DNA from: Bacteroidales bacterium
GTDB lineage: Bacteria > Bacteroidota > Bacteroidia > Bacteroidales > UBA12077
DNA: 34,411 nt
Assembly (NCBI GenBank): GCA_030156305.1
Contig: JASGMZ010000004.1
Location: 1 to 34,411 of the forward strand
Direction of reading: 5' to 3'
Position numbers and translations under genes: made by a program. The notes under the pieces were generated by a model. That model made no database searches, was not told the DNA's origin, and worked only from the letters and a program-made list of their open reading frames with translations. Of the stretch, positions 2,248 through 34,411 are shown one piece after another. Within the stretch, counting starts at the first letter, position 1; each line of letters begins with the position of its first letter.

Positions 2248-2264
2248 AATAATAATTTTAAGTG

Positions 2265-2333
2265 AGATTCGACATCAAGTGCGGAATGATATTTCGTTTA
2301 TTGTTTTTGTCATTCCCGTGAAAACGGGAATCT
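2265..2333. repeat. Pair of GTCAT..ATCT REP-like hairpins in opposite orientation
   Basis: 2309-2333 gtcattcccgtgaaaacgggaatct (stem attcccgt/acgggaat); 2265-2290 reads ATCATTCCGCACTTGATGTCGAATCT on the minus strand. Confidence 0.75.
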
Positions 2334-2334
2334 T

Positions 2335-4887
2335 TCATTTGTTTCTTAGCAAAGGTAACTTATATCTTCTTATTCCGTCAAATTTGGTTAAAGCGTTGCC
2401 TACTGCAGCTGCTGTGGGTACTAATCCGATTTCTCCAATTCCTTTGGCTCCGTAAGGCCCAACAGGATCTTTTACTTCAATCATTCTTACATCAATTTCT
2501 GGTGTTTCGTGAGCTCTTAAGATTTTCAAATCTTTCATCTTATCACTTATTAAAAATCCATCTTTCATGGGTAAATCTTCGGTTAATGCATAACCAAGTC
2601 CCATGTGTACCCCGCCTTCTACCTGGCCTTCAAAAAGCATTGGGTTCATTATTTTGCCACCATCGTGTGCAGCTATCATTTTCTTTATTTTTCCATTGTC
2701 ATCTAAGATACACACCTGTGCTGCATAACCGTAAGAATAATGGGTAATTTGTTCGTCAACATCTGTTCCTGGTTTAGTAGTCCAGTCGCAGACATATTGC
2801 CCTTTGTACGATTTGCCAACAATTTCTTTTAAAGATTTTGTTTTTAAATCTTTTTTTAATGCTTTGGCCGCATTAATCACGGCCAATCCAACCAATGCTG
2901 TTGCCCGCGATGATGTAGTCATTCCAGTTTTGATTTGTGCATCTGTATCAACAACCACTTCAATAATATCAGGAGAAAGGGATGTTTCCTGACACAATGT
3001 TTGTAAGGCCATATTATGTACCCCTTGTCCCATCTCGGTCCATCCGTGTTGTATACGGATATGATTTTCGGAAATAATATCTATCATTACTTTTGAATCA
3101 TCAATCATTCCATTCCCTACACCTGAATTTTTAATGGCGCAAGCCAGCCCTGCAAATTTTGCCTTTTTAAAGTCATCCTTAACGGCATCTAAACAAGCGC
3201 GAATTCCTACGCCAAAAACTTTTTGTCCGGTGGATGTTTTTAACCCATCAACCAGGGCATTGTCATATCTTATCTGCCATCTGTCGAAATTAGCCTGATT
3301 GCAAATGTCATCGATACAACTTTCCAGGGCAAAACATACCTGGTTGACGCCAAATCCTCGCATAGCTCCAGAAGGAATATTATTGGTATAAACTGTTTTG
3401 GCTTCAATATCAATTTCCGGAATAAAATAACCTCCGGATGCATGTCCCGCCACTCTTTCCAAAACTTTCATGCCAACCGAAGCATAAGCTCCGGTATCGC
3501 CCACAGCTCGTAACTTTAATGCTGTGAGTTTTCCTTTTTCGTCAGCACCCAACTCAATATCCATAAATACAGGATGACGCTTGGGATGCAGGCGTATTGA
3601 TTCTTCTCTTGTTAAGCTTAATTTTACAGGTTTTTGCATTAACCAGGCAAATAATGATGCATGGCCCTGTATGCTTAAATCTTCTTTTCCTCCAAATCCA
3701 CCCCCATTGGGGACAAGTGTTACATGCACTTTTTTTTCGGGTAATCCTAAGATCATAGCTACCTGGCGCCGGTCTTCATAAACACCCTGGCTCTGGCTAA
3801 ATAATTTTAGGCCATTTTTCCCATCCGGTTGTGCTACAGCAGCTTCTTTTTCTAAAAATGCATGTTCTATGCGTTGTGTTTCATATCTTCCTTTGGAAGT
3901 ATATGCTGATTTTTTTAATGTATCTTTGGCATTTCCAATGGTAAATTGAGTAGTATCAAAATGATTGGGCCTTTCATCATGCACCTGAGGGCCGTCAATT
4001 GCTTTAAATACATCGGTTACAGGTTCAAAAATTTCATATTCAACGTTAATTTTTTGAACTGCTTTGCGGGCAATATCTTCGGTTTCGGCAACTACACCTG
4101 CAATTACATCCCCAATATAATGCGTGGTTTCTCCTTCATCAATCATCACATTCCAATCCTGGAGTATTAATCCCACTTTTTTTTCGCCGGGAATATCCTT
4201 TGCTGTAAAAACACGGTGTACTCCGTTTAATTTTTCTGCCTGTGAGGTATCAATTTTTAAAACCCTGGCTTTGGGATGATCACTGAATTTTAGGGCAGCG
4301 AAAAGCATTCCGTCAAGAAAAATATCATCCACAAAATTGCGTTTTCCCAACGCTGTTTTATAGGCTTCGTATTTAGGATGAGCAACACCCACTTTTCCCG
4401 ATGTTTTGGTTATCTCCAGCTGTTTTGTGTTGCGAATTGCTTCACCGGCATACAGCATTGCCTGCTCAATTTTTTTGTATCCGGTGCACCGGCAAATATG
4501 AGGTTTTATTGCTTTTTGAATTTCTTCGATGGTGGGATTTGGGTTATTTTGTAAAAGGATTTTTGTGCGGGTTATAAAACCAGGAGTACAGAAACCACAT
4601 TGAACGGCTCCTTTATTAACAAAGGCTTTGGCAATCGTATCTTTAACATAATCAGGGAAACCTTCGGGAGTTAATATCACAGCACCATCAAGTTTGCCCA
4701 TTTTTGTTACACAAGCCAGTTTGGCTTTGCCATCAATTTCTACTGTACAAGCACCGCATGTTGCTTGTCCTGAGCATCCATCTTTAATCGATGTAATATG
4801 CTTTCCGGTGCGTAAATATTTTAATAATGTTTGATGGGCATCTCCCTTGTAAGTTTCTTTAACACCGTTTAAAGTAAATGTAATCAT
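2335..4887 (-). CDS. xdh: Selenium-dependent xanthine dehydrogenase-type molybdenum hydroxylase (2x[2Fe-2S] + molybdopterin domains, no FAD domain)
   Basis: 850 aa; GCSGQATCGAC, QCGFC, CRCTGY Fe-S motifs; GGGFGGK, AMRGFG, EMGQG, SSR, KGIGE MoCo-family motifs. Confidence 0.85.
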   Translation of the reverse strand: MITFTLNGVKETYKGDAHQTLLKYLRTGKHITSIKDGCSGQATCGACTVEIDGKAKLACVTKMGKLDGAVILTPEGFPDYVKDTIAKAFVNKGAVQCGFCTPGFITRTKILLQNNPNPTIEEIQKAIKPHICRCTGYKKIEQAMLYAGEAIRNTKQLEITKTSGKVGVAHPKYEAYKTALGKRNFVDDIFLDGMLFAALKFSDHPKARVLKIDTSQAEKLNGVHRVFTAKDIPGEKKVGLILQDWNVMIDEGETTHYIGDVIAGVVAETEDIARKAVQKINVEYEIFEPVTDVFKAIDGPQVHDERPNHFDTTQFTIGNAKDTLKKSAYTSKGRYETQRIEHAFLEKEAAVAQPDGKNGLKLFSQSQGVYEDRRQVAMILGLPEKKVHVTLVPNGGGFGGKEDLSIQGHASLFAWLMQKPVKLSLTREESIRLHPKRHPVFMDIELGADEKGKLTALKLRAVGDTGAYASVGMKVLERVAGHASGGYFIPEIDIEAKTVYTNNIPSGAMRGFGVNQVCFALESCIDDICNQANFDRWQIRYDNALVDGLKTSTGQKVFGVGIRACLDAVKDDFKKAKFAGLACAIKNSGVGNGMIDDSKVMIDIISENHIRIQHGWTEMGQGVHNMALQTLCQETSLSPDIIEVVVDTDAQIKTGMTTSSRATALVGLAVINAAKALKKDLKTKSLKEIVGKSYKGQYVCDWTTKPGTDVDEQITHYSYGYAAQVCILDDNGKIKKMIAAHDGGKIMNPMLFEGQVEGGVHMGLGYALTEDLPMKDGFLISDKMKDLKILRAHETPEIDVRMIEVKDPVGPYGAKGIGEIGLVPTAAAVGNALTKFDGIRRYKLPLLRNK

Positions 4888-13961: not shown

Positions 13962-14657
13962 ATGGCTAATATATTACTTAAATATCTGGAAGAAAGACAT
14001 AAAAAAGCTACTCAGAAAGTTGAAGAACCTAAAAAGGTTGGTCCGGTAATTACTATTTCAAGATCTTTTGGTTGTTCTGCAAACTTATGTGCTACTGAGC
14101 TTGCAAATATTTTAACCCAAATGGAAGGGAATCCTAATAATCCCTGGAAAGTAATTAGCAAAGAAATTCTTGAGGAGTCGGCTAAAGAGCTGGGCATCGA
14201 TTCAGAAAAAATTGAATATATTTTTCAGTTTGAAAGACGGAGTGCAATAGATGAAATTTTAGAAGCTTTATCGAGCAAATACTACAAAAGTGAACGAAAA
14301 ATAAAAAATACTATTAGAGAAGTGATTCATTCATTTGGCGAACAGGGACGTGTAATTATTGTTGGGAGGGCAGGATCTAGTATTTTATATGATATTAAAA
14401 ATGCATTACATGTTAGATTAATTGCTCCTTTAGATTATCGAATTGAAGGCGTAAGCCAAAGGCATAAAATTTCACATAAAGAAGCCAAAAAGCTTACCAT
14501 TGATATGGATAAAAAAAGAGCCATGTTAAGAAAAGATTTTGCAGGGAAAAGAACTTCTGATTTAGATTATGATTTGATATTTAATTGTAAAACAGTTAGT
14601 TCTGAAGAAATTGTACAACTGATTGTTAAAGCTGCAGAAATGCGGAAAATGGTTTAA
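13962..14657 (+). CDS. Cytidylate kinase-like family protein
   Basis: 231 aa; VITISRSFGC degenerate P-loop, VIIVGR, LHVRLIAP..R, D..R, YDL.FN. Confidence 0.85.
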   Translation: MANILLKYLEERHKKATQKVEEPKKVGPVITISRSFGCSANLCATELANILTQMEGNPNNPWKVISKEILEESAKELGIDSEKIEYIFQFERRSAIDEILEALSSKYYKSERKIKNTIREVIHSFGEQGRVIIVGRAGSSILYDIKNALHVRLIAPLDYRIEGVSQRHKISHKEAKKLTIDMDKKRAMLRKDFAGKRTSDLDYDLIFNCKTVSSEEIVQLIVKAAEMRKMV

Positions 14658-14705
14658 TTTTTTCAGCTATAAAAGTAAGAGAAATAATATAATTCAAGAA
14701 TTTAT

Positions 14706-21957: not shown

Positions 21958-23364
21958 GTGAATAACGATATTATATGTGCCATATCCACACCGCAGGGAA
22001 ACGGAGCCATTGCGGTTATTCGTTTAAGTGGTGATGAATCGATAGCCCTTACCGATAAGGTGTTCCAATCAGCAATCGATAAAAAACTGATTGACCAGCA
22101 GCCGAATACCCTGCATTTTGGCGTGTTAAAAGAGGGTGATAACATTATTGACGAGGTGGTTGTATCTCTTTTTAAAGCACCACGATCATACACCGGTGAA
22201 GATGTAGTAGAAATTTCCTGCCACGGATCAGTATATATTCAACAACAGATTCTTCAGTTGTTGATTAGAAAAGGAGCAAGGCTGGCCAAGCCCGGAGAGT
22301 TTACCCTGCGTGCTTTTGTCAATGGGAAAATGGATTTATCGCAGGCTGAAGCAGTAGCTGATCTTATCGCTTCTTCCTCTGCCACCTCACACAAAGTGGC
22401 TATCCAGCAAATGCGTGGTGGTTTTTCAAGCGAAATTGCAAACCTGCGCGACAGGCTGCTCCATTTTATTTCCTTACTTGAGCTGGAGCTCGATTTTAGC
22501 GAGGAAGATGTGGAATTTGCCGACCGTGGCCAGCTAAACGAACTATTGAATAACATCCAACATTTAATCCAAAAACTGCTTAAATCGTTCGAATTAGGAA
22601 ATGTAATCAAAAACGGTGTGCCTGTTGCCATTGTTGGGCATACCAATGTGGGAAAATCGACCCTGCTGAATAAAATACTAAACGAAGAAAAAGCCATCGT
22701 TTCCGAGATTGCCGGCACCACACGCGATGTAATCGAAGATGTGATAAATATCGAAGGAGTAACGTTCCGTTTTATCGATACCGCCGGTATCCGTGAAACA
22801 ACCGATACCATCGAAACCCTTGGCATTGAACGTACCTACGACCGCATCGCCAAATCATCCATAGTGCTGTTACTGGTGGATGCTACCGAAAAAGTTGCGG
22901 ACATTGCACAGGCGGTAAAAAAAGTAAAAGAAAAAATTGGCGCTACCGATAAAAAGCTGATTGTGATTGTAAATAAAATAGACCGTTTAAACGATTCGAC
23001 GATAGAGCAGGAGATCAATCAGTCGCTAAATAATCTACTCGATGAGCATGATGTGCACATAAAAATATCGGCCAAAACGGGCGAAAATATTGAGAAACTA
23101 ATTGAAGAACTGTTGTCGGTGGTTAACCTGGCTGCCCTGAACCAAAACGAAGTGATTGTAACCAATGCACGTCATTACGAAGCACTGGAAAAAGCATCGG
23201 TAGCGCTGCAACGCGCCATCGACGGACTAGACACTGGGATTACCGGCGACTTTCTGGCTATGGACATCCGCGAAGTACTCCATTACCTGGGTGAGATAAC
23301 CGGAGAAATCACTACTGATGAGGTACTTGGAAATATTTTTAAGAATTTCTGTATCGGAAAATAA
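21958..23364 (+). CDS. mnmE: tRNA modification GTPase MnmE (TrmE)
   Basis: 468 aa; SYTGED.VEISCHG, GHTNVGKS, GTTRD, DTAG, NKID, C-terminal FCIGK; GTG start. Confidence 0.97.
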   Translation: MNNDIICAISTPQGNGAIAVIRLSGDESIALTDKVFQSAIDKKLIDQQPNTLHFGVLKEGDNIIDEVVVSLFKAPRSYTGEDVVEISCHGSVYIQQQILQLLIRKGARLAKPGEFTLRAFVNGKMDLSQAEAVADLIASSSATSHKVAIQQMRGGFSSEIANLRDRLLHFISLLELELDFSEEDVEFADRGQLNELLNNIQHLIQKLLKSFELGNVIKNGVPVAIVGHTNVGKSTLLNKILNEEKAIVSEIAGTTRDVIEDVINIEGVTFRFIDTAGIRETTDTIETLGIERTYDRIAKSSIVLLLVDATEKVADIAQAVKKVKEKIGATDKKLIVIVNKIDRLNDSTIEQEINQSLNNLLDEHDVHIKISAKTGENIEKLIEELLSVVNLAALNQNEVIVTNARHYEALEKASVALQRAIDGLDTGITGDFLAMDIREVLHYLGEITGEITTDEVLGNIFKNFCIGK

Positions 23365-23419
23365 TTGATAATAAGAATTTTGTATTTTTACATTACAGGC
23401 ATATCGTTAATTTGTAGCA

Positions 23420-23445
23420 GTTATGCTGAACTTGTTTCAGCATCT
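23420..23445 (+). repeat. REP-like hairpin upstream of GIY-YIG gene
   Basis: gttATGCTGAActtgtTTCAGCATct, perfect 8-bp stem. Confidence 0.75.
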
Positions 23446-23461
23446 GTTTAATTAACCAACC

Positions 23462-23812
23462 ATGATAAAACAAGGATACGTCTACATTATGTCAAATAAA
23501 AACAGAACAACCTTGTATATCGGTGTTACCAATAATCTGGAACGCCGGGTGCTCGAACATAAAGCTGCCTGTGGTTCAAAATTCACATCAAAATACAATC
23601 TTTTTTATTTGCTTTACTGGGAGAAAATTGATGGAATGCAGCGAGCGATAGGCCGGGAAAAACAATTAAAAAACTGGCATAGCGAATGGAAATGGAACAT
23701 CATTCAAGAAGAAAACCCTGCGTTGAAAGATTTAGCCGGGGATTGGTTCTCGGATGATGTGATAAAAGAATATAAAAGGAGCCATTTGGCAGATTCCGAA
23801 GCTAGTTCGTAA
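23462..23812 (+). CDS. Small GIY-YIG nuclease family protein
   Basis: 116 aa; GYVYIM..TLYIGVT..L.RR..EH, FT.KY, AI.REKQLK.W...WK..I...NP...DL. Confidence 0.92.
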   Translation: MIKQGYVYIMSNKNRTTLYIGVTNNLERRVLEHKAACGSKFTSKYNLFYLLYWEKIDGMQRAIGREKQLKNWHSEWKWNIIQEENPALKDLAGDWFSDDVIKEYKRSHLADSEASS

Positions 23813-23816
23813 TGAC
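23791..23816 (-). repeat. REP-like hairpin at 3' end of GIY-YIG gene, inverted relative to 23420-23445
   Basis: Minus strand GTCATTACGAACTAGCTTCGGAATCT; 18/26 identical to the upstream copy. Confidence 0.7.
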
Positions 23817-23829
23817 TGCAAAACATCCG

Positions 23830-24050
23830 ATGAAACAAGAATATGTATATAGTGGCTATAAGAAAACGTCAATAACTGCGTTACGCTCGCATTGGCAACC
23901 AGTCATTTACGTCAGTAAACTCCTGGATGCCAATTCTTCGCAAGCCTTGTTCTTGACGTTTTTTATTACGCCACTAAAAAAACTGGCGTTTTCTAAGATG
24001 CACTATATATCTTATCTAACAAAAACAGAACAACACTTTATCCCGGATGC
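23830..24050 (+). pseudogene. Second GIY-YIG gene 5' remnant interrupted by a MITE-like element
   Basis: Removing the insert gives MKQEYVYILSNKNRTTLYPG versus MIKQGYVYIMSNKNRTTLYIG of the upstream gene. Confidence 0.8.
23850..24005. mobile_element. ~156 bp non-autonomous palindromic (MITE-like) element in a TATATA site
   Basis: Ends TAGTG..CACTA; TATATA at 23846-23851 and 24004-24009; nested inverted repeats; second copy at 34318 onward. Confidence 0.85.
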
Positions 24051-24160
24051 CCAAAGCTTTTTATCTGTATAATCTTAAAAATATTTTCCTAAACACCCTT
24101 GTTCTTTTTTGCTTTTTGTTTGTTTTTGTTAATTTTAGGTTCTGTTAAAATAATAAATGC

Positions 24161-26926
24161 ATGGGTAAAACACCTGAACAAATTGCACGTGAAAAGATTG
24201 ACCAAATGCTGATATCAGCGGGCTGGGTTGTTCAGGATATGAAAGATATCAACCTCGGGGCTTCGTTGGGTGTTATTGTCAGGGAATATCCTACCGAAAC
24301 AGGGCCGGCAGATTATATTATGTTTGTTAACCGTAATCCGGTGGGTGTGATCGAAGCTAAAAAAGAAGGAACTATATTAACTACTGTAGAAGAACAATCG
24401 GAGCGATATGCCACCAGCGGATTGAAATGGAATATCGATCAGCAAAAATTACCATTTATTTACGAAAGTACCGGAGTTATTACACGGTTTACAGATAATC
24501 GCGATCCGGTACCTCGTTCCAGGGAGATTTTTCATTTTCACAGGCCGGAAACACTGGAAGAATTAGTAAAACAAGAAAATTCCTTTCGCTACCGGTTAAG
24601 GAATGACATTCCGGTATTAAACCCTGAAGGGCTAAGAGCTTGCCAGGTAAATGCTATTACCAGGCTCGAAAAATCTTTTGCTGAAAATAAACCCAGGGCG
24701 CTCATTCAGATGGCCACCGGTTCGGGGAAAACATTTACAGCTATCACTTCGGTTTACCGGTTACTTAAATTTGCCCATGCAAAAAGAATTTTGTTTCTGG
24801 TGGATACCAAAAATCTGGGTGAACAAGCTGAACAGGAGTTTCAGGCATACAAGCCAAACGATGATAAACGTAAGTTTACCGAACTATATACAGTACAGCG
24901 GTTAAGCTCCTCATACATTAACCAAAGCTCGCAGGTTTGTATCAGTACGATACAGCGCATGTATTCTATTTTAAAAGGTGAAGAGCTTGACGAAACGGCC
25001 GAAGAACATTCGTTAAATGAAATAAAATTAAACAACGAAAATCCCAAAGAAGTGGTTTATAATCCGGATGTTCCGATAGAAACTTTCGATGTAATCATTA
25101 TTGATGAGTGCCACCGTTCTATTTATAATTTATGGAAACAGGTGCTCGATTATTTTGATGCTCTTCTGATTGGATTAACAGCTACACCCGATAATCGCAC
25201 TTTTGCTTTCTTTCACGAAAATGTGGTAAGCGAATATACCCATGAAGAAGCAATTGCCGACGGGGTAAATGTAGGATACGATATTTATACTATCGAAACG
25301 GAAATAACCCAAAATGGAGCAAAAATTGATGCCAAACAATTTGTGGATTTTCGCAGTAAGTTAACCCGTAAAAAACGTTGGGGGCAATTAGACGAAGAAG
25401 AAGAATATACGGGCAGGAATCTCGACCGTAATATTGTTAATCCAAGCCAGATAAGACAAGTTATACGCACATTTAAAGAAAAACTTTTAACTGAAATCTT
25501 TCCAAACCGCAAGGAAGTACCCAAAACCCTTATTTTTGCCAAAACCGACAGCCATGCCGATGATATTATTCAGATTGTGCGCGAAGAGTTTGGCGAAGGA
25601 AACCAGTTTTGTAAAAAAATCACCTATAAAATTGATGAGGATCCAAAATCCCTTTTAGCCTCGTTCCGAAATGCATACTATCCGCGTATTGCTGTTACGG
25701 TAGATATGATTGCCACCGGAACCGATGTAAAACCTTTAGAGGTGCTTTTGTTTATGCGCGATGTAAAGAGCAGAAACTACTTTGAGCAGATGAAAGGCCG
25801 CGGAACAAGAACCTACCGAAAGGATGACCTGCAAAAAGTAACGCCTTCGGCCGTTTCCAATAAAACACATTTTGTGATTGTGGATGCCATCGGCGTATGC
25901 AAATCGGTAAAAACCGAAAGCAGGGCACTGGAACGAAAAAAATCGGTCCCGCTTAAAGATCTGGTGATGAATGTAATGATGAATAACCGCGATGAAGATA
26001 CCTATACATCTCTTGCCGGGCGTTTGGGCCGAATAGAAAAGCAAATGACCCCTGAGGAAAAAAATCAATTTAAAGCTATTGCCGGTGGTAAAAGTATTCA
26101 CCAGGTAACCCATGAGCTCTTAAATGCCTACAATCCCGACTGTGCTATTGAAGAAACAAAAGCAAAATATCCCGAAACGGTTAATCTCGATGAGCAGGAA
26201 ATCCCGGCCGAAAGAGTAGAAGAAAGTAAGCAGGAATTGATAAATAAAGCAGGCAATGTATTTACCGGAGAGCTGTTGCAATATATCGAAAAAGTAAAAA
26301 CTGCACACGAGCAGATTATTGATACCGTAAACCTGGATAAAGTAAATTTTGCAGGTTTTTCGGACGATATGCAAGAGAAGGCCAAAGAAACCATCAAAAG
26401 CTTTGAGGCGTTTATTGAGGCGAATAAAGATGAAATTATTGCGCTTCGGATTTTTTACGATCAGCCTTATAAGCGCAGAAAGTTTTCTTATCAAATGATC
26501 AAAGAATTGCGCGGGAAATTGCTGCAAAGCAAACCCAATCTATCTATAATGACTGTTTGGGAAGCATATAAACGTTTGGAAAACAAACAAATATCGAACC
26601 CGGCCACCGAATTAACCGCATTGGTGGCTTTGGTAAGGCGTGCAATAGGGCTTGATACGGGCTTAACCCGGTTTGAAAGTACCGTAAATAATAATTTTAA
26701 ACAATGGGTGTTTACCAAAAATGCCGGTAATGTACAGTTTAGCAAAGAGCAAATGGAGTGGCTGCGGATGATGAAAGATTACATAGCCACCTCAATGAAT
26801 ATCGAAAAAGACGATTTTGACAACGAGCCCTTTGCCGAAAAAGGCGGGTTAATGAAAGTATGGAATATTTTTGGTGATCAACTGGAAGATATTGTAGAAG
26901 AATTAAATGTTGAATTAATTGCATAA
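24161..26926 (+). CDS. hsdR: Type I restriction endonuclease subunit R
   Basis: 921 aa; ADY..IEAK nuclease motif, MATGSGKT, DECHR, GLTATP, MIATGTD, QMKGRGTR, EcoEI-like helical C-terminus. Confidence 0.93.
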   Translation: MGKTPEQIAREKIDQMLISAGWVVQDMKDINLGASLGVIVREYPTETGPADYIMFVNRNPVGVIEAKKEGTILTTVEEQSERYATSGLKWNIDQQKLPFIYESTGVITRFTDNRDPVPRSREIFHFHRPETLEELVKQENSFRYRLRNDIPVLNPEGLRACQVNAITRLEKSFAENKPRALIQMATGSGKTFTAITSVYRLLKFAHAKRILFLVDTKNLGEQAEQEFQAYKPNDDKRKFTELYTVQRLSSSYINQSSQVCISTIQRMYSILKGEELDETAEEHSLNEIKLNNENPKEVVYNPDVPIETFDVIIIDECHRSIYNLWKQVLDYFDALLIGLTATPDNRTFAFFHENVVSEYTHEEAIADGVNVGYDIYTIETEITQNGAKIDAKQFVDFRSKLTRKKRWGQLDEEEEYTGRNLDRNIVNPSQIRQVIRTFKEKLLTEIFPNRKEVPKTLIFAKTDSHADDIIQIVREEFGEGNQFCKKITYKIDEDPKSLLASFRNAYYPRIAVTVDMIATGTDVKPLEVLLFMRDVKSRNYFEQMKGRGTRTYRKDDLQKVTPSAVSNKTHFVIVDAIGVCKSVKTESRALERKKSVPLKDLVMNVMMNNRDEDTYTSLAGRLGRIEKQMTPEEKNQFKAIAGGKSIHQVTHELLNAYNPDCAIEETKAKYPETVNLDEQEIPAERVEESKQELINKAGNVFTGELLQYIEKVKTAHEQIIDTVNLDKVNFAGFSDDMQEKAKETIKSFEAFIEANKDEIIALRIFYDQPYKRRKFSYQMIKELRGKLLQSKPNLSIMTVWEAYKRLENKQISNPATELTALVALVRRAIGLDTGLTRFESTVNNNFKQWVFTKNAGNVQFSKEQMEWLRMMKDYIATSMNIEKDDFDNEPFAEKGGLMKVWNIFGDQLEDIVEELNVELIA

Positions 26927-34244: not shown

Positions 34245-34343
34245 ATGATTTCTGCAAAAGATGGTAAGAGAGCTATTTACATTGATGTGGATAACAAAGA
34301 AGAGATTTTGGCATATATAGTGGCTATAAGAAAACGTCAATAA
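34245..34343 (+). pseudogene. 5' end of a probable gene interrupted by the second MITE copy
   Basis: TACATTTG promoter motif at 34217-34224; MISAKDGKRAIYIDVDNKEEILAYI runs into the element and stops inside it. Confidence 0.4.
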
Positions 34344-34411
34344 CTGCGTTACGCTCGCATTGGCAACCAGTCATTTACGTCAGTAAACTCCTGGCTGCCA
34401 ATTCTTCGCAA
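34318..34411. mobile_element. Second MITE-like copy, truncated by the window end
   Basis: 34314-34411 matches 23846-23943 at 97/98 nt, including the left TATATA. Confidence 0.88.

Follow-up and report, generated by a model that had tools for sequence, protein, structure and literature searches.

A hairpin-flanked GIY-YIG nuclease gene, probably of the Ssn type, downstream of mnmE in a low-G+C Bacteroidales genome

What does it mean when a small nuclease gene is bracketed, almost to the nucleotide, by a pair of inverted hairpins? The question is raised by a stretch of 34,411 nucleotides from a Bacteroidales bacterium (contig JASGMZ010000004.1, hereafter the window), in which the gene for a 116-aa GIY-YIG protein lies between two such hairpins. 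A first-pass annotation had read the arrangement as a REP/RAYT-like layout with a GIY-YIG enzyme in place of the transposase, and as a candidate mobile unit. Here, we find that the unit from about 23408 to 23825 is most likely an SRM-ssn-SRM cassette: an Ssn-family small GIY-YIG nuclease gene with its cognate hairpin motifs, which by analogy with characterized members would work by recognizing the hairpin on single-stranded DNA and nicking 5' of a short tag. The pairing of gene and hairpin is itself not new. It is a further, slightly variant example of the published Ssn system, and what is new here is detail only: A/T-rich stems that the published motif misses, and a repeat that is not amplified in this genome.

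Anatomy of the cassette and its probable kinship with Ssn systems

The cassette and its immediate neighbors are arranged as follows (genomes are given as G numbers, loci as L numbers and contigs of the genome studied here as C numbers).

21958-23364: mnmE (MnmE domains), upstream of the left hairpin
23408-23419, + strand: conserved outer left flank, ending in GCAG; start of the homology that the four close genus copies share (blastn boundaries and alignment)
23420-23445, + strand: left SRM-type hairpin GTTATGCTGAACTTGTTTCAGCATCT, 26 nt, 8-bp perfect stem, 5-nt loop
23462-23812, + strand: ssn-type gene, 116 aa, single GIY-YIG domain (PF01541)
23791-23816, - strand: right SRM-type hairpin GTCATTACGAACTAGCTTCGGAATCT, 26 nt, inverted relative to the left one, one stem mismatch
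23817-23825, + strand: conserved outer right flank TGCAAAACA; end of the homology that these four copies share
23830-23851, + strand: 5' remnant of a second ssn gene, part A (MKQEYVY; direct repeat D1)
23846-24009, no strand assigned: MITE-like repeat, about 160 bp long, whose terminal inverted repeats (I1) are imperfect and measure 26 nt; inserted in the ssn remnant
about 24003-24047, + strand: 5' remnant of the second ssn gene, part B LYILSNKNRTTLYPG (tblastn, D1, and alignment with G049 and G013)
24161-26926: type I restriction R subunit (ResIII, EcoEI_R_C), directly downstream of the ssn remnant

The geometry is as tight as the first-pass annotation had stated. The left hairpin lies 55 nt past the mnmE stop and ends exactly 16 nt ahead of the ATG at 23462, and the inverted right hairpin spans the TAA stop codon (23810-23812) and encodes the last 7 codons of the gene. 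The two hairpins are identical at 18 of 26 positions, again as claimed, and differ at three stem pairs; the further claim that their differences are mostly compensatory stands for two of these (G-C to T-A, and T-A to C-G), the third being an A/G mismatch. The base change behind this mismatch also makes the TAA, one codon ahead of the TGA used in three close relatives. The left hairpin carries the tag GTT, at a place where 56 of 58 aligned family hairpins have GTC. Both hairpins of the cassette therefore carry a lesion, and the gene is intact; since the left tag is not GTC and the right stem is mismatched, the local hairpins may be poor substrates.

Folded as single-stranded DNA, the left hairpin reaches -7.9 kcal/mol (z -3.7 versus shuffled controls) and the right -6.3 kcal/mol (z -3.5), and in both DNA folds a CAG ahead of the tag pairs with a CTG past the stem, so that two tag bases are bulged. 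The covariance model R1 scores the right hairpin at 34.3 bits and the left, which was part of its training set, at 39.1 bits. As a separate observation, the loop and 3' arm of the left hairpin are complementary to the first bases of the ssn-type gene; many homologues start with other codons.

The only domain in the protein is GIY-YIG (PF01541, E 4e-17, residues 5-77 of 116), with an overlapping T5orf172 the sole other Pfam match, and an NCBIfam profile search returned no family above cut-off (TIGR01453 reaches 20.9 bits versus a cut-off of 56.05). The nearest solved structures, 1zg2 and 1ywl (UPF0213), match weakly over about 70 residues (E 0.003 and 0.014), and judging by sequence the protein and UPF0213 (YhbQ-like) belong to the same superfamily and probably to different families. 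Homologues number 5418 at E<=1e-3. Across 34 that we aligned, Y19, G21, R29, H33 and E66 are invariant and Y8 is nearly so; by analogy with I-TevI, they include the putative catalytic residues, namely the GIY and YIG tyrosines and the metal-binding acidic residue. The hairpins themselves appear in the proteins: by eye, at least 12 of the 34 end in hairpin translations, in three frames (DSETSSE, DPETSSG, KQVQDD or alike), and the annotated N-terminus of the closest homologue (P0001), MLNLFQHL, is the translated left hairpin.

Chenal et al. (Nat Commun 2025, PMC11893778) define the NTS repeat of Neisseria and a wider class of Ssn-related motifs (SRMs), which lie beside homologues of ssnA, a 94-aa single-domain GIY-YIG gene. 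They report at least one SRM for 71% of homologues and SRMs on both sides for 42%. The four Ssn enzymes purified there recognize the hairpin and cleave immediately upstream, on single-stranded DNA only and on one strand only, and are reported to have no action on RNA; binding depends most on the C after the palindrome, and cutting on the three bases that precede the palindrome (PMC11893778). Membership of the family is assigned there through CDD cd10448, or through blastp to N. meningitidis SsnA at E<1e-10 and 75% coverage. The 116-aa protein lies within the family's size limit of <150 aa and has, as that limit is paired with, one GIY-YIG domain only.

Two homologues at 45-53% identity (L018 and L077) have the Neisseria NTS core, letter for letter, on their flanks; a search from L077 gave no named Neisseria protein among the best 120 matches listed. 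Five of six species looked up from homologue loci occur in supplementary file 7 of PMC11893778, all five flagged 'SsnA homologue YES, cd10448 YES' (a flag given per genome, not per gene) and tabulated with fold enrichments of 0.46-1.4. The likeness to the Ssn/SRM systems covers a single-domain GIY-YIG protein of about 100 aa, a gene flanked on both sides by 20-50-nt GTCAT-palindrome-ATC hairpins (with the altered left tag and mismatched right stem here), an orphan hairpin at 2309-2333 that fits the published motif, and a family spread across phyla. The differences are stems that are A/T-richer here, a CTTGT-type loop that the published motif does not allow, and four copies in this genome rather than hundreds.

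By homology with the Neisseria and Wolbachia enzymes, we propose that the 116-aa protein would bind the hairpin on single-stranded DNA, such as arises in replication or enters the cell by transformation or conjugation. It would recognize the short GTC tag on the 5' side of the palindrome, together with the C that directly follows the palindrome, and would nick the tag-bearing strand upstream of this tag, at a distance of a few nucleotides. With the two hairpins in inverted orientation, one cut is predicted per strand, each just outside the unit. These expectations of binding and cutting, like any biological role for this protein, are drawn by analogy.

Association of hairpin and gene across homologues

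The association recurs well beyond this locus. Among the 80 best of 594 confirmed homologue loci, drawn from one-genome-per-species contigs, a structural scan (GTYAT, then a 4-10-bp stem in which one mismatch is allowed, a 3-9-nt loop and ATC) finds a same-sense hairpin within 200 bp upstream in 42 and an inverted hairpin within 200 bp downstream in 25; both are present in 21 loci and either in 46, and the scan finds no hairpin in the remaining 34. Hairpins are likewise absent from one ssn paralogue group in the genus. At the far-flank background of 28 hits per 239.8 kb, about 1 locus is expected. The signal is directional and close to the gene: the first 100 bp upstream hold 36 (+) and 5 (-) hits, the first 100 bp downstream 22 (-) and 14 (+), and no 100-bp bin more than 600 bp from the gene holds more than 3. 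The first-pass annotation had proposed to test for an enrichment within 100 bp of homologues, and these counts show one. By the same scan, Olleya namhaensis, one of the five species tabulated with fold enrichments of 0.46-1.4 in PMC11893778, has five hairpins within 200 bp of its gene. Compared by eye, left and right stems frequently differ at a given locus, with no fixed pattern to the difference.

To avoid circularity in assessing the stems, we picked hairpins by their flanks only (GTCAT, 17 bases, ATC), and 81 of the 107 sites so picked near genes have all six inner pairs. In a set of 58 hairpins, comprising 56 distinct flank-picked sequences and the two from the window, 90.3% of stem cells are paired versus 73.7% in shuffled sets, and both-side changes occur in 85 cells versus 23.6 +/- 6.9, a count that 0 of 500 shuffles reaches; controls in which the partner is slid pair at 15-49%. 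The conserved unpaired bases in the alignment are GTC before the palindrome and C after it. The first-pass proposal that enzyme and hairpin belong together is upheld by this directional enrichment at homologue ends, by the covariation of the stems, and by the published binding and cutting of single-stranded DNA within the family (PMC11893778).

Could two hairpins nonetheless stand beside this gene by coincidence? Short A/T-rich palindromes are common at 34% G+C, and 28 loose hits are found genome-wide. Within the window, however, a pattern built from both copies finds 2 sites versus 0.25 expected (2 of 100 shuffles reach 2), and the hairpin recurs, with covariation, upstream of the gene in 42 and downstream in 25 of 80 independent loci. 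We give coincidence next to no credence.

A different reading takes the hairpins to act as RNA, the left one as a terminator for mnmE and both as stabilizers of the 5' and 3' ends of the nuclease mRNA, with a link to the gene that is regulatory only. The left hairpin is indeed the one terminator-like site in 23250-24250 (an 8-bp stem and then CTGTTTAATT, 55 nt past the mnmE stop), the stem covariation would fit an RNA structure equally well, and many tagged REPs have been proposed to be RNA elements (Di Nocera et al. 2013, PMC3733652). However, the motif has a direction, and its unpaired tags, GTC before and C after, are conserved, which a plain terminator would not require, and the hairpin stands inverted at the other end of the gene and occurs in orphan pairs in both orientations. 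Rfam at E<=10 gives only two chance snoRNA-like hits in 22800-24800, and the published enzymes are reported to bind the hairpin as single-stranded DNA and not to act on RNA (PMC11893778). We consider a purely RNA-level role improbable. A sigma-70 promoter scan stayed at chance level.

Neither flanking hairpin fits the published degenerate SRM search motif, which was derived from 29 mostly G+C-richer genomes (PMC11893778); we attribute the misfit to that origin, and not to non-membership. Within 500 bp of the 80 homologues, the published motif occurs at 10 loci (4 of them on both sides), where the structural scan succeeds at 52 (32 on both sides). The published motif thus misses most hairpins of this clade, which a structure-based model recovers, and for this reason the published figures of 71% and 42%, and the near-1 fold enrichments for Bacteroidota, are probably underestimates.

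A low-copy repeat and its neighborhood

Two gene-less hairpins lie about 21 kb from the cassette, where the first-pass annotation had placed them:

2266-2291, - strand: orphan hairpin, degenerate, facing away from its partner; 15.3 bits, E 0.11 (covariance model); folds no better than shuffles
2309-2333, + strand: orphan hairpin GTCATTCCCGTGAAAACGGGAATCT, perfect stem, -7.8 kcal/mol

The genes on either side of the pair encode an amidohydrolase and a molybdenum hydroxylase. At the site of the degenerate member, the relative G045 has a perfect stem, and the intergenic site as a whole holds a perfect pair in G045 and a decayed one in G014; the orphan pair is an old resident of its intergenic site. 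In G049, the site orthologous to window 2250-2335 (L156), a stretch that is partly masked, contains a 153-aa ORF beginning MANTYTQITIHIVF. This ORF lies between three copies of a roughly 110-nt repeat, and its HIHILVG motif is putatively IS200-type.

Genome-wide, a structural scan of all 232 contigs (2.59 Mb, from an assembly that is 78% complete) finds only the four known copies among 28 mostly A/T-only chance hits, and the published SRM search motif matches once, at the orphan (2308-2335), versus 1-5 times in ten dinucleotide shuffles. With only four copies, the description of the hairpins as REP-like, which the first-pass annotation had used, fails for this genome. In 37 genomes of the genus, covariance-model matches range from 0 to 67 per genome, counts that are rough because 150 candidates were scored in each. 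Among the 24 of these genomes that were also scored for the gene, the 15 with a homologue at E<=1e-15 have 0-51 matches (median 7) and the nine without one have 0-67 (median 2); the 67 belong to G015, whose best homologue is found at only 1.4e-6. Between repeat copy number and gene presence, a comparison that the first-pass annotation had suggested, the trend among related genomes is weak at most, and we claim no correlation.

Two published repeat families invite comparison. The CGTC-tagged REP superfamily, reported without a dedicated transposase (Di Nocera, De Gregorio & Rocco 2013, PMC3733652), likewise consists of palindromes that carry an unpaired (C)GTC tag on one side and frequently stand in opposed pairs; in contrast, the repeat here has few copies and accompanies one particular nuclease gene. 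The Neisseria repeat dRS3, as described in PMC11893778, has a palindromic core of the type ATTCCC-N8-GGGAAT, and our orphan copy has ATTCCCGTGAAAACGGGAAT; the difference is that this genome belongs to another phylum, with no clustering of the repeat around surface-protein genes and no amplification.

Downstream of the cassette, 13 nt past the right hairpin, a second ssn gene starts (ATGAAACAAGAATATG at 23830), in agreement with the second GIY-YIG start that had been noted there. It is split by the 160-bp repeat and resumes at about 24003-24047, where part B matches at 80% over 15 aa by tblastn and ends ahead of the hsdR upstream region. Recurrent tandem 5' remnants, sought beside homologues, yielded only noise apart from a full tandem (L048) and a divergent second copy (L033), and we therefore regard the remnant here as a local accident. 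The tandem in L048 (1548-2708, Mesonia sediminis) comprises three full-length ssn genes whose proteins are 95-100% identical, with the same hairpin before each.

The MITE-like repeat has about 70 blastn matches, full or partial, at 92-99% over the 232 contigs, including another copy at the end of the window (34314-34411); many of these matches coincide with contig ends, so the repeat is a probable cause of breaks in the assembly. The upstream region of the restriction R subunit recurs in G049 but is absent from the majority of congeners; the restriction locus could thus be an island, and the cause of the truncation of the second ssn copy.

Further GIY-YIG genes occur elsewhere in the genome. 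Contig C64 (L182, 249-559) carries a different, 87-aa GIY-YIG gene (PF01541, E 1.2e-14) bounded by inverted ends (ACCCTGTCAAAT... / ...ATTTGACAGGGT), with near-perfect 16-nt palindromes on either side of it at 157-189 and 737-771. This element splits an ORF whose downstream half reads MPNHFHLMV, presumably HUH-transposase-like; Pfam searches of both halves gave no match. Two more distant paralogues (31-33% identity; C31 at about 14200-14700 and C35 at about 3270-3730) lie directly after putative tRNA genes, judged from the appearance of the sequence.

Mobile element or old resident

Does the unit move? It could be a minimal mobile element reaching from hairpin to hairpin and moved by the GIY-YIG nuclease acting on single-stranded DNA hairpins, which excises or is deleted via the hairpin arms, leaves a solo hairpin and enters existing hairpins; we put this forward only tentatively, as the less probable course of events. 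It is similarly doubtful that the cassette is an autonomous GIY-YIG 'transposon' that is cut at both hairpins, excised and reinserted preferentially at or in other hairpins, the gene-less hairpins being its non-autonomous derivatives.

The layout resembles REP/RAYT and IS200/IS605 in that short hairpin repeats surround the gene of an enzyme thought to act on them as single-stranded DNA, and in that gene-less copies are scattered, often as inverted pairs. It differs in that the enzyme is a GIY-YIG nuclease, with no HUH/Y1 transposase found by Pfam or NCBIfam, and in that the tag is GTC rather than the GTAG of REP/RAYT; moreover, the two hairpins of the cassette are on opposite strands, those at the ends of IS200/IS605 on a single strand. 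Free-standing GIY-YIG homing endonucleases, namely I-TevI and the Seg proteins, share the catalytic fold and a selfish-gene flavor; the 116-aa protein, however, has no DNA-binding domain and no intron or phage context, its gene having mnmE and a type I restriction R subunit for neighbors. The likening of NTS-ssnA-NTS to an insertion sequence, to IS200/IS605 and to REP/RAYT already appears in the discussion of PMC11893778, so the inference made in the first-pass annotation was already in print as a hypothesis, and the layout is not novel.

Several features look like the traces of a mobile unit. Four close copies in the genus (G000, G007, G018, G001) have in common only window 23408-23825, with a sharp right boundary at 23819-23825, 3-9 nt outside the hairpin, beyond which the DNA differs in each. 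Such close copies, at 82-87% protein identity, occur in only 3 of the 24 congeners searched, and the one in G001 has a compensatory change at two left-stem pairs. At the very position of the full unit in G007, G022 has a single chimeric hairpin that combines the outer arm of the left hairpin with an outer arm of the right type; the two genomes differ there by 405 bp, joined at a 6-nt GAGTTC inside the hairpin arms. Genomes can hold several ssn-type genes, with up to 8 tblastn matches and the near-identical tandem of L048, and hairpin model matches vary widely among congeners (0 to 67). The family is found in 15 phyla among the 76 rows of a protein tree (5 of 80 loci, which had no clean ORF, were left out), and phylum labels on this tree need 24 changes where the minimum is 14. 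Shuffled labels need about 35 changes. The tree is poorly resolved, with 6 of 73 branches supported, and is no proof of transfer.

The surroundings of these copies tell against movement. A portion of the sequence 3' of mnmE accompanies each of the four full copies; the left flanks of those in G007, G018 and G001 contain the last mnmE bases and its spacer, G013 and G049 have the left hairpin and a 60-85-nt gene remnant directly after mnmE, and the solo hairpin of G022 is placed after mnmE as well. Because mnmE flanks and remnants recur in this way, one old insertion after mnmE, followed by decay, arm-arm deletion and local rearrangement, explains the copies, and a deletion between similar hairpin arms accounts equally well for the G022 junction. 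The empty sites that the first-pass annotation hoped for did not materialize: no clean one was found for the copies in G007, G018 and G001, which have mnmE-flank sequence in common instead. No target-site duplication was found either.

The paralogues point the same way. Within a genome, ssn paralogues are only 65-86% alike, and orthologous loci are syntenic, at 87-91% over about 870 nt including flanks; this divergence and synteny leave no sign of recent transposition. Hairpin counts track the presence of the gene only weakly, and a full-text literature search returned no transposition of an Ssn cassette and no further paper on Ssn. The cassette studied here is a low-copy, ageing, old resident downstream of mnmE, and not part of an expanding repeat family.

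The SRM hairpins of the genus also harbor a second structure. A G+C-rich hairpin of 38-56 nt (CCTGCCTGC...GCAGGCAGG) lies inside SRM hairpin loops in three relatives, at about 1330-1370 of L102 (G013), 2210-2248 of L132 (G022) and 1409-1466 of L082 (G007), sitting in the left hairpin in G013 and in a neighboring hairpin in G007. It may be a second small element that targets SRM loops.

If the unit from hairpin to hairpin were mobile after all, the (C)GTC-tagged REP superfamily would gain the enzyme partner that it has long lacked, and the transposition chemistry would be one not known from any described bacterial insertion sequence. For deciding between movement and decay, the genus offers a graded series, from the full cassette through a truncated gene with its left hairpin and a solo chimeric hairpin to nothing. 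Apart from the question of movement, the locus extends the hairpin-nuclease pairing of the Ssn systems, published in 2025, to low-G+C Bacteroidota, and each new pair of enzyme and hairpin is a candidate sequence-specific cutter of single-stranded DNA for laboratory use.
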